Below the pieces are notes generated by a model. It was not told where the DNA came from and did no database searches. It saw nothing but the letters and a program-made list of their open reading frames with translations. A stretch of 64,000 bases of DNA, filler included, from Globobulimina sp. (Eukaryota), in assembly GCA_003354225.1 (NCBI GenBank). It is 40 parts of 40 records of this genome, joined end to end, with 100 filler letters (N's around TTAATTAATTAA, not from the genome) between each part and the next. Parts side by side here need not be neighbours in the genome. Positions count along the whole stretch, not along the records: positions 25,649 to 27,151 come from PIVH01015654.1; 39 more parts are not named here. One strand, 5' to 3'. Position numbers and translations under genes: made by a program. Shown here piece after piece: positions 22,443-28,754 of the stretch; the stretch's first letter is position 1; every line of letters starts with the position of its first letter.

Positions 22443-23945
22443 ATGTTTTGTTGTCCGATCTTTTAATGTTTTGTTGTCCACGTTACACGTTGCAGTGAAT
22501 CGATTGATCTTTTAATGTTTTGTTGTCCACGTTGCAGTGAACCGACTAATCTTTTAATGTTTTGTTGTCCACGTTACACGTTGCAGTGAATCGATTGATC
22601 TTTTAATGTTTTGTTGTCCACGTTGCAGTGAACCGTTTGATCTTTTAATGTTTTGTTGTCCGCGTTGCAGTAAACCGTCTGATCTTTTAATGTTTTGTTG
22701 TCCCCGTTGCAGTGAATAGTCTTTTAATGTTTTGTTGTCCACGTTGCAGTAAACTGACTGCTTGTTTATGTTTTGTTATCCACTTGCTGTGAACAGACTG
22801 ATCTTTTAATGTTTTGTTGTCCAAGTTGCAGTGAACCGACTGATCTTTTAATGTTTTGTACTTGCAGTGAACAGACTGATCTTTTAATGTTTTGTTGTCC
22901 ACGTTGCAGTGAACCGACTGATCTTTTAATGTTTTGTTGTCCACGTTGCAGTAAACCGACTGATCTTTTAATGTTTTGTTATCCACTTGCAGTGAACAGA
23001 CTGATATTTTAATGTTTTGTTGTCCACGTTGCAGTGAACCGACTGATCTTTTAATGTTTTGTTGTCCACGTTGCAGTAAACCGTCTGATTTTTTAATGTT
23101 TTGTTGTCCCCGTTGCAGTGAATCGACTGGTCTTTTAATGTTTTGTTGTCCACGTTGCAGTAAACTGACTGCTTGTTTATGTTTTGTTTTGTTGTCCACG
23201 TTGCAGTGAACCGACTGATCTTTTAATGTTTTGTTGTCAATGTTGCAGTAAACCGACTGATCTTTTAATGTTTTGCTGTCCACGTTGCAGTGAATCGATT
23301 GATCTTTTAATGTTTTGTTGTCCATGTTGCAGTGAACAGAACAGACTGATCTTTTAATGTTTTGTTGTCCACGTTGCAGTGAACCGTCTGATCTTTTAAT
23401 GTTTTGTTGTCCGCGTTGCAGTAAACCGTCTGATCTTTTAATGTTTTGTTGTCCACGTTGCTGTGAACTGACTGATCTTTTAATGTTTTGTTGCCCATGT
23501 TGCAGTAAACAGACTGGTTTGTTATGTTTTGTATGTTTTGTTGTTCACGTTGCAGTAAATTGTTTATGTTTTGTTGTCCACGTTGCAGTAAACCGACTGA
23601 TCTTTTATGTTTTATTGTCCACGTTGCTTATGTTTTATTGCCCAGACTGATTTGTTATTTTTTTATGTTTTGTTGTTCACGTTGCAGTAAATTGTTTATG
23701 TTTTGTTGTCCACGTTGCAGTGAACCGACTGATCTTTTAATGGTTTGTTGTCCACGTTGCAGTAACCCGTCTGATCTTTTAATGTTTTGTTGTCCACGTT
23801 GCAGTAAACCGACTGATCTTTAATGATTTATTGAACAAGTTGCAGTGAATCGATTGATCTTTTAATGTTTTGTTGTACACTTTGCAGTGCACTGTCTGAT
23901 TTTTTTACTGTTTTGTTGTCCACGCAGTAACCCGACTGATCTTTA
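22443..23945. repeat. 42-nt satellite (ttttaatgttttgttgtccacgttgcagtgaaccgactgatc) filling the contig
   Basis: About 35 head-to-tail units with substitutions and short indels; no unique spacers. Confidence 0.95.
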
Positions 23946-24361
23946 NNNNNNNNNNNNNNNNNNNNNNNNNNNNNNNNNNNNNNNNNNNNTTAATTAATTA
24001 ANNNNNNNNNNNNNNNNNNNNNNNNNNNNNNNNNNNNNNNNNNNNCAGTGGATTGTGATTGAATAATTGGATGGTTTTAGATTTTAGAAGCAATAATGAT
24101 AACTGTTGTCACCAAATATTACAGTACTTAAGTGTTAATTTTGTATCGATCATTCAAATAACTCTATTAATGTAATTTATACATTTAAAATTTATATAAT
24201 TATTAGTATAAAATTGTATTGACGCTTCTAAAACCATCCAATTCTCCACACCCAATCCACTGATTATTATTTTACGATTTCTGTACGTATTTTAATCCAA
24301 ACAGTTATAATTATGATAAGCCAAAAAAAAAATGCATATTTATCCAAAAAATACACAATAC

Positions 24362-24578
24362 CTTCAAGGTTAAATACATATTTATCCAAAAAATTCGAAT
24401 CATTATTGATATGTTGAATCGCTAACCAATGACCTCCCGTGGTTTGTACACTATCATCACTTAAATTATATTTATTTGTGATTGCGAAGATTGTAACCGA
24501 TATTTTATTGTCTGAATTCGTACAAATCAGCGTGATAGTTAAACTTAATAATATCAGTAAAATAACAACAGTTGACAT
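24362..24578 (-). CDS. Signal peptide plus start of an ANF-receptor/Venus-flytrap-like domain (class C GPCR-like); first exon, may be degenerate
   Basis: MSTVVILLILLSLTITLIC signal; HWLAIQHINNDSNFLDKYVFNL matches the A..HIN....L..Y.L pattern; GT donor after the exon. Confidence 0.45.
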
Positions 24579-24652
24579 GATTATTGGTGGCTACTATTAA
24601 ACATGGAAGTTGCTGAAAACACAAAGATTTATTAAAAGCAGTCTTTGGTATA

Positions 24653-25548
24653 TTATGAGACATATTCAAGTAAATCGTCAACAGTTGACAACAAACTTTT
24701 TTTCTCATTCTTTAATATTTTACAGTGAAATCGTATATGATCTTCAATATATGTGGCGATGTGATCATAACCATGGCCATAACCATCATTATACCTCACC
24801 TTAATTTTAATATCATTCTCTTTACAAACTTGTTCAAATTGAGCTATTCTTAGTTGATTATGATTATCATCGCCATGTTGCAAAGCAAAATCATTCGTTC
24901 CTTGATCAATCATAATTATTTCACTCATACTTTTCTTTTCCTTTTCCGATAAATTTCGAATCAATTCCAATGAATCATATTTAAGCCATTCTTCAGAATT
25001 AAAATTCTCTTCTTTTGCTCCTAAATAACCACTAAATGCTTTATGTCCCCATTTACATAAAATTGGATTACAAATTGGTGCAAATGCACTGCACGACTTA
25101 TACGCAAATATATTTCGTAAATAAATCATTAAAGCACCATGACCGCCCATTGAATGTCCCATAATTGATACTGAGCCAAAATCAAATATATTTGCAAATC
25201 GATCAATCGACGCCAATGTTGATGGCAATTCCTTTACAATGTAATCATAATTATTATAATAACTGGACCATGGTTTTTGTGTCGCATTTACATAAAAACC
25301 AGCACCTTTTCCAAAATCCCTGTGTGTTAATTATTTGTTATGGTATCTGAGTGCAAGGATTATTATAAATTACATTATGCATCAAAACAAACCAATGATT
25401 GGAATCTCCATCAATATCAATGCCACGCGGTGAGGTATCAGGACATATTAAAGCAATGCCACATTTTGATGCATATTGTGGTGCGCCCGATTTCGTAATG
25501 AAGTTATCTTCGGTACAAGTTAAGCCAGATAAAAAATATAAAATTGGT
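24653..25548 (-). CDS. ESD: S-formylglutathione hydrolase (esterase D); intron 25320-25392; 5'-truncated
   Basis: [38 protein letters not shown] across the intron, [40 protein letters not shown]. Confidence 0.93.
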
Positions 25549-25648
25549 NNNNNNNNNNNNNNNNNNNNNNNNNNNNNNNNNNNNNNNNNNNNTTAATTAA
25601 TTAANNNNNNNNNNNNNNNNNNNNNNNNNNNNNNNNNNNNNNNNNNNN

Positions 25649-26842
25649 TGTTTTACTTTTACAACATTCGCAGGTGAATCTATCAAGTGATTCCATTAAA
25701 TCAAAACTATTCTTCTTTTTATTTTTATTTTTCCGATTATATTTATCTAATTTCCGTTGATAATATTTACGTTCTTTTTTACCTTTTGAGCAATAACAAA
25801 ACTGTTTATATTCTATATCCTGTTTCATATCAACATCATCGTCAATATTAATATTAACATTACTGTCAATATCCATCTTTATTTTATCACCTTTTTCTTT
25901 AACTTGAGTTTGTGTCATGTTTTGAAAATATTCCACAATATCTATGCTTTCAAACAAAACATGACATTCATTAAAATACTTTTTATTTGATAATTGATTA
26001 ATAAATGCATTCGTATAGTGCTGGAATGCAAATGTTGACGGTTCCAACCCGTAGACCACCTACAATGCAAAATAAATATTAAAGCATATACATTATAACA
26101 TATTTGAACATAACTTTTGGTTGAAATGTTTTAACAAAGCCATCCAACATATTGCCTTTACCAAATCCAAAGTCAGCAATATTTGCGATGCTCTTAAGTA
26201 TTCGCTGTTTTTTCATAAAATAATAACAATACTCGGCATGTTCAATTCCATTATCCTCGCCATCCATATATTTTTTCCACTCCTTCGGGTAAAGGTGTGT
26301 CCAATAATTGTGTGGGAATCCTTTTCTTCCTAAATTTTGATTTTTTTTATTAAATCTTCGAAAACTGTCAACCAATTTAAATGCTTCTTGACTTAATCCC
26401 GATGAATAAATCCATTCATCATATTGTTTCGGCCATTGTTTCCATCGGATTTTAAATTGTATGTCTTCATCGTCGGATTCCTGTTTTTCATCCAATATGC
26501 ATTCAATGTCAAACGTTACGACAAATCTCAATTTCTTTGATGCTTTGCTTGCTGTTTTGGATGCAAACGCCATAATATATTCATGCCATTCTGTAATTAA
26601 TTCCTTACTACAAAATTGTTTCATTGGTAGTGCTGCATCGACGGATAATATTTGTTCCATTGATTCCCATTTTTTTTTGCTTCGTTTGGTTCTTTTCACC
26701 GAATATTGATCAATAAATGGAGATGAACTATTTGGATTCTTACGATGTTTGTATATACCGCAAATCTGGTTAATTCATTTGGAATTTGTCATTGATTATT
26801 GAATTAAAATAGACTCAACGTAACTTGCCCATATTCTTCCAT
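25649..26842 (-). CDS. Tandem chromodomain - class I SAM methyltransferase fusion; introns 26766-26824 and 26060-26114; 3'-truncated
   Basis: Spliced MEEYGQICGIYKHRK...QYSVK...KWESMEQI (chromo-like 1); FDIECILDEK...FKIRWKQWPKQYDEW (chromo 2); IADFGFGKGNML (motif I) and VYGLEPS (post-I). Confidence 0.7.
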
Positions 26843-27252
26843 TGATTGTAATATGTCTTTGTATCAATGTGCGTTGAAGTAAACAATAAAATAATTTATT
26901 TGTACGTATACTTTGCTGAGGCAGAAGCAGTTCAAAAAAGAGCCATTGGCTAAATTTAAGAAACTGCAAGTTTTTATATTATTTTCTTGTCAACGGTGGA
27001 CATCACATCAATAAAACCAACACATTGTGAATTAAATTTGTGAATTAAATGTGAACGTTTCTGGTTTGTCAGATCGTGAACACGGTGTACAAACTTATGA
27101 AAATATTGCAACCAAAATGAAATTTTATTATTTTCAATAAATTCTAGAATTNNNNNNNNNNNNNNNNNNNNNNNNNNNNNNNNNNNNNNNNNNNNTTAAT
27201 TAATTAANNNNNNNNNNNNNNNNNNNNNNNNNNNNNNNNNNNNNNNNNNNNC

Positions 27253-28754
27253 AATAAATCAAAAACTAAATCAAATTCGCCTAAAACAGCAAATAAAAAA
27301 AAACACACAGCACAAACACCCAAACCGCGTACGCCTAAATCTGCAAAAAAAATAAATTCATCAAAACCACCACCACCGCCAACTGTAAACAAAAACGTTT
27401 TAAATCAACCAAAACCCCCCAAAAAACAAAAAAAACCACCACCACCAAACAAAATAAATAGCGTTCCTGCACCACCCAAAAAAACACAGTCAGAAAACGC
27501 AAAAACACCAAACCACCCAAAGCTTCCCGATTCAGTCAATAAAAAACCAAATCCACCACAATCTCCAAAAAGACCAAAAAAAACACCACCACCAAACAAA
27601 AGAAATAGCCTTCCCGCACCACCTAAAAAAACACAGTCAGAAGACTCAAAAACAGCAGACCCAAAGCTTTCAAATTCAGTGTGGGCGCCACCAAAACGCG
27701 TATTTTTCAAATCAATCAGTGTCACTACATCCGAACCCCCGCTATTTAGGCAAAATGCTTTGGCGCAAAGCAAATCTAAATCTGTCCCCACCGATCATCG
27801 CAAAAGTTTGTCAACATCAGCTGTAAAACTGCCGCATCCTCCACCGAGATCACAGAGATGCAACAAACCGAGCACAGCAACAAAGTTTATACCTTCTACG
27901 GATGAAAAGGAATCCGCTCAGTTTATACCGTCTGGCGCTGGCAATGCAAAACCGTTTATGTGTCGAGTAAACTATGAATGTAAAACTCAAAAAGGCAAAC
28001 AAGAAATATACGACGCATTGAAATTATTAGCACCAAATCCTGGCACCATTACGTATCATTTTACTGCTCCAAATGCTGTCAAATATCCATTGAAATTGGA
28101 ATTTATTGAATTGTATTATGACGAAAACGCATATTTCAAACAGTTGTATTATTATACAAAAGCACCGCAATTTGAAAAGGCATATTTCAAACACGTCAAA
28201 TCAAAAACGGTTCTGACGATTGGTGAGCATTTAAGCGATAAAATTAGAAAGATAATTGGCATTAAATTTAAATCACGTTTTGGACAAAGCGAAGCTGGAT
28301 ATTTATTTCATGAAAATTATTTAAAATCGTTGGATTATACGGATGCTACAAAGCTAATGTTCAAATTTCATGTCATTGTGCCTGGGAAGGAAGAAAATGT
28401 TGCATTGTATTTTAGTATAATGGATCGATTGGGAGTATATGCAAAGGAATCGTATGCATTGATGTTTAATTGTCATCGATTGGATGTTGAAGTGTATCCA
28501 AATTATTTGGAATTGATATCAATTTGGCCAAATATTGAATGTTTATTGGAGTTTTTGCAAAAGGATAAAGTGCAAATTATAATGATGGAATTTAAACAGT
28601 TAATGATTAAACAAACTGATAAAGTTAATCGGAAAAATCATGTTTTGTGTGAATTGTATGCTGAAAATGAAATTAAATGCGAGGTGATGCAAATGATTCA
28701 CATGGTTTTTGATGACATTGGTTATACGCAACAACTTAAAACTGATGCTGGTTA
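27253..28754 (+). CDS. Pro/Lys-rich repeat protein with unknown globular C-terminal region; truncated
   Basis: Internal duplication at about 27419-27537 and 27565-27680; long ORF 27679 onward. Confidence 0.55.

Follow-up and report, generated by a model that had tools for sequence, protein, structure and literature searches.

A foraminiferal gene that joins a chromodomain to a bacterial-type class I methyltransferase

A spliced gene at the end of an unplaced contig

Within 64 kilobases of DNA from the foraminiferan Globobulimina sp. (assembly GCA_003354225.1), which we refer to as the window, one contig carries on its minus strand the beginning of a gene whose predicted product fuses a chromodomain, in a single reading frame, to a class I S-adenosylmethionine (SAM) methyltransferase of a bacterial type. 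An earlier reading of the same DNA (the original prediction) had proposed three exons encoding tandem chromodomains and such an enzyme, the latter acquired horizontally, and we followed it up with sequence searches, structural models, a tree, and contigs of public runs, which we call X1 to X4. The window consists of 40 unplaced contigs of 1502-1503 bases each, sorted by size and ranging from 27 to 46% G+C, with runs of N around a TTAATTAATTAA linker at every joint. Given that it is joined from unplaced contigs in this way, neighboring segments provide no gene context, and any finding that depends on neighboring genes beyond a linker is void.

Position 25649, up to which the reading frame stays open, is the end of a 1503-base contig and not a gene boundary, and the gene is therefore cut and stands without genomic context. 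No other part of it was found on the other contigs of the window, an Rfam scan of the window gave 0 matches, and the source foraminiferan's own protein was absent from the protein collections searched. Of this spliced nuclear foraminiferal gene the contig has the 5' two-thirds, with the following features:

25649..27151, no strand: host contig of the gene, 1503 bases, unplaced, 30% G+C, flanked by N..TTAATTAATTAA..N
26843..26960, minus strand: 5' untranslated region (minimum extent), from record 17 of X3, which runs from 26563 across the exon 2/exon 1 joint to 26960
26825..26842, minus strand: exon 1, ATG at 26842 plus 5 codons (6 codons in total); orthologues P0003 and P0004 begin alike
26766..26824, minus strand: intron 1, 59 bases, GT..AG; X3 joins 26765 to 26825, and X4 has a loose end identical to the last bases of exon 1
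26115..26765, minus strand: exon 2, 217 codons, with the N-terminal module, the chromodomain, the methyltransferase lid, and motif I
26550..26765, minus strand: N-terminal conserved module, three strands, short helices, and a long helix, with basic residues and no aromatic cage
26337..26522, minus strand: canonical chromodomain with the aromatic triad F/W/W (PF00385; CDY1 6v41; superposition on Rhino and HP1)
26115..26324, minus strand: methyltransferase N-terminal lid and motif I (YW, DG..N..H..Y; DFGFGKG at 26154-26174)
26060..26114, minus strand: intron 2, 55 bases, GT..AG, phase 0; joint present in X2, X3, and X4
25649..26059, minus strand: exon 3, open and cut by the contig end, with strand 2 and its acidic residue, strand 3, and a charged insert
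26036-26056, minus strand: strand 2 with its acidic residue (E of VYGLEPS), a class I signature
25937-25963, minus strand: strand 3, in exon 3
25790-25801 and 25664-25675, minus strand: CxC pair of the charged insert, in exon 3
25649..25656, minus strand: a third intron may start here (GTAAAACA); the final three codons are unlike all orthologues

The three exons and the two GT-AG introns (26766-26824 and 26060-26114) that had been predicted proved exact, since contigs of public runs lack both stretches and match both splice junctions to the base. The joint without 26060-26114 is seen in three studies, on one contig each of X2, X3, and X4, and the joint without 26766-26824 is found in X3, on a contig that continues to 26960. 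In X4 a contig stops at 26765, where its loose end of 12 letters reads as the last bases of exon 1 in reverse complement, and X1, from the same sample as X3, retains both introns. On a plain reading the intron-less contigs are transcripts; the kinds of run are off record, and X4 was taken to be an RNA run by guess. The position of intron 2 is common to P0005 and P0006, whose predicted proteins both read into the intron. Exon 2 alone encodes both the chromodomain and the SAM-binding motif I, and so the two are fused whether or not the introns are removed. The sequence GTAAAACA and the mismatch of the last three codons with the orthologues suggest that position 25656 may open a third intron.

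At 34 coding positions the window departs from related contigs that are 90-99% alike and that may represent alleles, paralogues, or sister species. In the folded parts (residues up to 239) 14 of these changes are synonymous and 7 non-synonymous, and in the insert 4 are synonymous and 9 non-synonymous. As a rough indicator, this is consistent with modules under purifying selection and an insert that is less constrained. X2 and X3 also contain short contigs of depth up to 255 with long loose ends at the low-complexity lysine-codon stretches 25700-25760 and 26465-26515; these contigs are likely unrelated repeats and not this gene.

Modules of the predicted protein

All of the motifs that the original prediction had quoted (the chromodomain, YW, DG..N..EHAEY, DFGFGKG, and VYGLEPS) were found at the places it implied. 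Its claim of tandem chromodomains held for the second of the two N-terminal modules, and the first gave no sequence match. The second module, whose start and W-containing strand lie at 26502-26516 and 26433-26447, matches the Pfam chromodomain PF00385 at E 2.1e-5 with 24.8 bits in the window, 0.3 under the curated cut-off of 25.1, and the chromodomains of its orthologues score 26.4-37.5 bits, over that cut-off. It also matches the CDY1 chromodomain (6v41) at E 1.8e-4, with its F/W/W aligned to the F/W/Y of CDY1. These three positions, which in chromodomains form the methyl-lysine cage, are aromatic in every row of our alignment (A4) that covers the columns concerned.

We modeled exon 2 with AlphaFold2 (AF2) from 16 rows and obtained a mean predicted local distance difference test score (pLDDT) of 76.8, with both N-terminal modules above 90. 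The modeled chromodomain has strands at 87-94, 103-108, and 117-120 and a helix at 128-138, with pLDDT mostly 82-94. Structural comparison with VIA placed it on Rhino (Z 7.9, root mean square deviation [rmsd] 1.9, 57 residues) and HP1 (Z 7.8, rmsd 1.4, 53 residues), within an overall range of Z 7.0-7.9 and rmsd 1.4-2.1 over 51-59 residues that also takes in Chp1 and Polycomb, and the chromodomains of CHD4 and SUV39H1 superpose on it as well. We are certain that the second module is a genuine canonical chromodomain.

The first module, which is made up of exon 1 and residues 1-72 of exon 2, is strongly conserved among Foraminifera in A4, and its model, at pLDDT 92-96, shows three strands together with a long helix and two short ones. 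No sequence in Pfam or among the solved structures (Protein Data Bank) matched it. Foldseek searches with the exon 2 model returned the tandem chromodomains of CHD1 and CHD4 as top matches (E 1.8e-3 to 3.9e-3, probability 0.95-0.99), and the full-length orthologue model returned the same tandem at E 7.5e-5. These matches to the N-terminal 150 residues resemble the CHD arrangement in covering both modules, over 165-258 columns, but they do so at an rmsd of 14-17 Å, the foraminiferal protein lacks the ATPase, and the first module alone finds no chromodomain, VIA giving only unrelated small barrels at Z<=4.4. VIA further listed CD2-CD3 of cpSRP43 (Z 6.4, 97 residues, rmsd 11). By eye, the cage positions of the first module are non-aromatic and hold basic residues. 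As modeled, the first module is chromo-like in topology only, and on its own it probably does not read methyl-lysine.

Downstream of the chromodomain, the lid motifs of the methyltransferase (YW at 26301-26309; DG..N..EHAEY at 26229-26267) are followed by motif I and, across intron 2, by the acidic residue of strand 2, in agreement with the claim of a class I SAM methyltransferase fused in frame. The window copy stops before strand 4, and the whole fold is seen in P0147, an orthologue from Nonionella, modeled with AF2 from 83 foraminiferal and bacterial rows (mean pLDDT 82.3, predicted template modeling score 0.78). In this model residues ~165 to 465 form a seven-stranded alpha/beta class I fold, with the motif I strand at 215-218 and the strand of the acidic residue at 238-242. 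Compared by VIA with 48,161 chains, it matched 50 class I methyltransferases at Z 16.2-13.7 over 160-202 aligned residues. The list is flat: it includes UbiG and the histamine, phosphoethanolamine, and natural-product methyltransferases, CmoA, HEN1, and the cap N7 enzyme, and NRMT1, NTM1, and PKMT2. Because it, like the list from Foldseek, is flat across small-molecule, RNA, and protein enzymes, no substrate class is readable from the fold. The protein methyltransferases NRMT1 (Z 15.1) and NTM1 (Z 14.8) share the class I fold and give the longest alignments (200-201 residues), and PRMT1 and Rickettsia PKMT2 share the fold too, but dozens of enzymes for small molecules and RNA score level with all four, and the foraminiferal proteins have none of their family-specific motifs; THW is present in 0 of 11 foraminiferal sequences.

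Profile searches gave a similar picture. A profile of 76 bacterial members, compared with solved structures, found FPP methyltransferase at E 3.4e-6, Rickettsia PKMT2 at E 7.2e-6, bacterial Hen1 at E 2.8e-5, and BpumL at E 2.9e-4, through core motifs only. The window pieces matched no Pfam methyltransferase family; the full-length foraminiferal proteins reach Methyltransf_25 at E 0.004-0.055, below the cut-off, and a bacterial relative, P0017, reaches it with 32.5 bits, over the cut-off of 27. The original prediction had also stated that the enzyme is neither a SET domain nor a DNA methyltransferase of the DNMT kind, and our searches bore this out: a SET family was found neither in the window pieces nor in 7 foraminiferal relatives (E up to 1-10), and a DNA_methylase family was found neither in P0001-P0003 (E up to 10) nor in P0004, P0008, P0013, and P0014 (E up to 1).

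Between strands 3 and 4 the foraminiferal proteins carry an insert of 100-476 residues, of which 18-28% are Lys and Arg and 15-18% Asp and Glu. A CxC...CxC pair lies in the insert of 9 of the 11 foraminiferal sequences; P0014 has one half of it and P0013 none. In the P0147 model the insert appears as low-confidence helices, and that it contains a zinc site or a signal for nuclear import is a guess.

Relatives, and the other contigs of the window

A phmmer search with exon 2 against 1,835,955,588 representative proteins yielded 18 matches at E<=0.001, 7 of them at E<=1e-30, with a query that covered only the first ~70 residues of the catalytic domain. Word-based searches added 3 proteins from 411 candidates and 6 from 8000 scored. 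Full-length fused forms have 425-599 amino acids and are 49-61% identical to the window gene from the first exon to the contig end. Every named fused relative belongs to Foraminifera: Ammonia sp. (P0004 and P0020), Bolivina argentea (P0003, P0145, P0007, and P0149, representing at least 3 forms), Nonionella stella (P0147 and P0009), Globobulimina turgida (P0011), and Reticulomyxa filosa (ETO21908.1, P0013, a fragment limited to the catalytic part). Since several of these named forms come from transcriptome sets, the fused frame is expressed in other genera. Nothing that we found points to separate transcripts for the two halves, to a catalytic domain without the Rossmann fold, or to the architecture of a known eukaryotic family, the three outcomes that the original prediction had named as telling against it. 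The remaining relatives come from metagenome or run assemblies, two of them from G+C-rich European Nucleotide Archive (ENA) contigs: P0010, with both of the N-terminal modules, and P0012, in which the chromodomain leads into the methyltransferase start. These two stem either from G+C-rich Foraminifera or from another lineage that carries the fusion.

The likeness to small methyltransferases of a Leptospira type, which the original prediction had suggested, is real. Two stand-alone bacterial proteins of the kind, P0017 and P0019, were matched by phmmer at E 3.1e-4 and 4.5e-4; one is in the cluster 'class I SAM-dependent methyltransferase [Leptospiraceae bacterium]', and the other lies on a Bacteriovoracaceae contig. 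They belong to a family of ~222 amino acids (e.g., MCB1143849.1) that shares with the foraminiferal proteins the whole catalytic domain at 25-35% identity, including the YW...DG..N..H..Y lid, motif I, SV.QY after strand 4, and a C-terminal LESK region, and that differs from them in standing alone, without a chromodomain and without the insert between strands 3 and 4. A profile of this family found 217 proteins at E<=0.001, and among the best 120 of the 217, which we examined, all 13 named rows are bacterial (9 Leptospira/Leptospiraceae, 2 Bacteriovorax, 1 Deltaproteobacteria, and 1 Rhizobacter). Of the 151 genomes sampled from the Leptospira class, 104 contain a match to the family (E<=1e-10 or better), as do 16 of the 121 sampled from the Bacteriovoracaceae phylum (E<=1e-20). 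An alignment of 83 rows from Foraminifera and bacteria has 25 columns with conservation of 90% or more, among them the N-terminal Y-W, D, N, H, and Y, motif I, S-V-x-Q-Y after strand 4, and C-terminal residues; all 14 that lie ahead of the contig end are kept in the window.

The family libraries searched (Pfam and NCBIfam) hold no curated name or function for these bacterial proteins. The top Atlas cluster was a 225-amino-acid methyltransferase of Bdellovibrionota (score 0.98). A label that Atlas also offered, 'pseudaminic acid biosynthesis-associated methylase' (0.96-0.97), was set aside, as a search of NCBIfam up to E 1 did not return that family. By its sequence, the catalytic domain is assigned to an unnamed class I family of a Leptospira/Bacteriovoracaceae type. 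The gene context at 13 bacterial loci revealed no consistent operon. In Leptospiraceae an open reading frame (ORF) of ~438 amino acids without a family often abuts upstream (6 of the 13 loci), and an ORF of ~1043 amino acids, with a C-terminal, sub-threshold match to a PD-(D/E)XK nuclease (E 3.9e-4), lies downstream at 4 of 13; the loci concerned are L001 (4684-6000 and 6672-9803), L003, L005-L008, L010, L011, and L015. Aconitase lies upstream at 4 of 13. A functional link of the bacterial methyltransferase to the ~438- and ~1043-amino-acid ORFs is possible.

We built a quick, unrooted maximum-likelihood tree from 128 rows (8 foraminiferal catalytic parts and 120 distinct bacterial rows) and 224 columns, leaving out the near-identical P0024-P0026 and fragments. 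The 8 foraminiferal rows form one clade, with 100 in the Shimodaira-Hasegawa-like approximate likelihood ratio test (SH-aLRT), on a long stem of 1.16. This stem joins the tree between a clade of 37 rows that contains the Leptospira-named rows (97) and a clade of 83 rows (92) that includes the Bacteriovorax-, Rhizobacter-, and Deltaproteobacteria-named rows. As the tree lacks an outgroup, it gives neither a donor nor a direction. Given that the family occurs in many bacteria of at least two phyla, and that Foraminifera stand alone among the named eukaryotes, one transfer from a bacterium to a foraminiferan is the economical reading of the distribution. Such a transfer, if it happened, would be old, because Reticulomyxa and the rotaliid genera share the gene. 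The direction of the horizontal acquisition that had been proposed is suggested by this distribution and not by the tree, which is unrooted and whose foraminiferal clade is not nested inside a bacterial subclade.

The remaining contigs of the window hold a few features of their own. An esterase-family fragment lies on the minus strand at 24653-25592, assigned to the contig 24046-25548 (Pfam Esterase PF00756, E 8.4e-26), with a segment at 24653-25330 and an apparent intron at ~25331-25380; it is on a separate contig and is unrelated to the fusion gene. The contig 22443-23945 encodes a repeated peptide unit of ~14 residues (…NVDNKTLKDQSVH…), with several frames open on both strands, and is probably a tandem DNA repeat. 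The contig 27252-28754 is open in one frame throughout on the plus strand, with a proline/lysine-rich repetitive N-terminal part followed by ~290 residues without a Pfam family.

Readings of the fusion and what it may mean

Fusions of a reader to a writer of methyl marks, as in SUV39 and the chromomethylases, are central to heterochromatin spreading. The foraminiferal protein resembles SUV39 and Clr4 in pairing a methyl-lysine reader with a methyltransferase, and the chromodomains of SUV39H1 and Clr4 match its second module; the catalytic fold of those enzymes, in contrast, is SET, whereas that of the foraminiferal protein is class I and Rossmann-like. With the plant chromomethylases CMT3 and ZMET2 it has in common a chromodomain (ZMET2 at Z 6.0) and a methyltransferase of bacterial ancestry, but it has no match to C5-DNA methyltransferases, and its chromodomain is N-terminal, whereas theirs is embedded. 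In our search of full-text literature, to which supplements might add, neither the fusion nor the bacterial family was described, and the available part of a preprint on foraminiferal life-cycle expression makes no mention of this gene. The fusion of a chromodomain to a bacterial-type class I methyltransferase has apparently not been described before.

The reading that we favor, and hold to be somewhat better than an even bet, is that the protein is an active methyltransferase of bacterial type tethered to methylated chromatin, a reader-writer role suggested by its architecture. A foraminiferal ancestor would have acquired the methyltransferase from a bacterium and fused it onto chromatin-reading modules. 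The chromodomain would dock on histone tails at a methylated lysine of the H3K9me3 or H3K27me3 kind, since its nearest structural relatives read one or the other of these marks. The basic first module and the Lys/Arg-rich insert could help in nuclear import, in contact with nucleic acid, or in both, and the tethered enzyme would methylate a neighboring component of chromatin. As to which component, a protein (a histone or another chromatin protein) is the single guess we rate highest, at short of even chances, with DNA or RNA and something else entirely trailing it equally; within the tethered-enzyme reading, we lean slightly to protein over DNA or RNA.

Several points weigh against this reading. 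Both binding and catalysis are predictions, the window copy is without strands 4-7, and the fold and profile matches are generic, such that the substrate is readable from neither. The bacterial relatives live without histones and in inconsistent gene neighborhoods, and the ancestral substrate may for that reason be a small molecule. Chromodomains can bind non-histone partners, and cpSRP43 is among the matches. As for origin and expression, the long foraminiferal stem (1.16) lies between two bacterial clades, nested in neither and with no outgroup, and the search for other eukaryotic carriers was limited, in that the exhaustive query was the first ~70 residues of the domain. Finally, with run kinds off record, the intron-less contigs might be a processed DNA copy.

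The alternative that survives best, which we nonetheless regard as rather unlikely, is that the protein is a nucleic-acid methyltransferase aimed at heterochromatin, methylating DNA or a nascent or structural RNA that the basic insert and the first module would hold. The Lys+Arg content of the insert (18-28%) and the basic residues at the cage positions of the first module would suit such an enzyme, the plant chromomethylases set a precedent (ZMET2 chromodomain, Z 6.0), and bacterial Hen1, HEN1, BCDIN3D, and the tRNA cmo5U34 enzyme are among the generic matches. However, the motif (D/N/S)PP(Y/F/W/H), sought anywhere in the protein, is present in none of 11 foraminiferal and 5 of 123 bacterial sequences, and there was no match to a DNA_methylase family. 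In a profile alignment with bacterial Hen1 (3jwi), the S..QY of the family stands opposite the E..EH of Hen1, residues that bind the metal. The 222-amino-acid bacterial form, moreover, is without a target-recognition domain.

A distinctly less likely possibility is that the enzyme does not act on chromatin at all, the chromodomain serving for protein docking as in cpSRP43, whose chromodomains are among the matches, and the substrate being a small molecule or lipid of bacterial-type metabolism. Consistent with this, the families matched by the bacterial relatives (Methyltransf_25/12/23/11) consist mostly of small-molecule enzymes, and UbiG and the histamine, phosphoethanolamine, and natural-product methyltransferases are among the closest structural rows. 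Yet the best matches of the chromodomain are all readers of methylated histone tails, with the aromatic triad conserved, and the Lys/Arg runs of the insert appear to be of a nuclear-import kind.

We consider it very unlikely that the protein is a catalytically dead scaffold in which the methyltransferase fold acts as a structural or SAM-sensing module. The fold is indeed interrupted between strands 3 and 4 by 100-476 inserted residues, and the Pfam methyltransferase matches of the foraminiferal proteins are below threshold, but bacteria and Foraminifera have in common motif I, the acidic residue that follows strand 2, and the 25 family-wide columns, and synonymous changes prevail in the folded parts. 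We rejected as exceedingly unlikely the notion that the gene is part of a mobile element, a chromovirus-like retrotransposon or viral insertion and not a host gene: a weak match, P0018 (E 3.3e-4), resembles by its sequence the chromodomain tail of a retroelement integrase, and retrotransposons that pair chromodomains with prokaryote-type DNA adenine methyltransferases are reported in a 2026 preprint, but the enzymes given there are of a different family, no full-length orthologue has a reverse transcriptase or integrase family, the spliceosomal introns are at conserved positions, and orthologues occur in at least 5 foraminiferal genera.

The favored reading of a tethered methyltransferase is best valued as a testable lead and not as a solved mechanism. 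It would mean that the reader-writer logic of SUV39 and the chromomethylases has been realized with a third, unrelated catalytic family, one of bacterial type, and that a probable old transfer from a bacterium to a eukaryote has been wired into chromatin. A bolder version, possible but one we doubt, is a Foraminifera-wide chromatin writer that draws on a bacterial enzyme family not known to be used by other eukaryotes and makes a methyl mark not made by SET, DOT1, PRMT, or DNMT enzymes, with a heterochromatin-type reader as its guide and a histone, another chromatin protein, or nucleic acid as its target; such a writer may tie to the unusual nuclear cycles of these giant cells. The gene also provides a handle on an enzyme that occurs in roughly two of every three genomes sampled from the Leptospira class. 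Foraminifera are a major group of eukaryotes that is molecularly almost unexplored, and this gene gives the study of their epigenetics a defined candidate.

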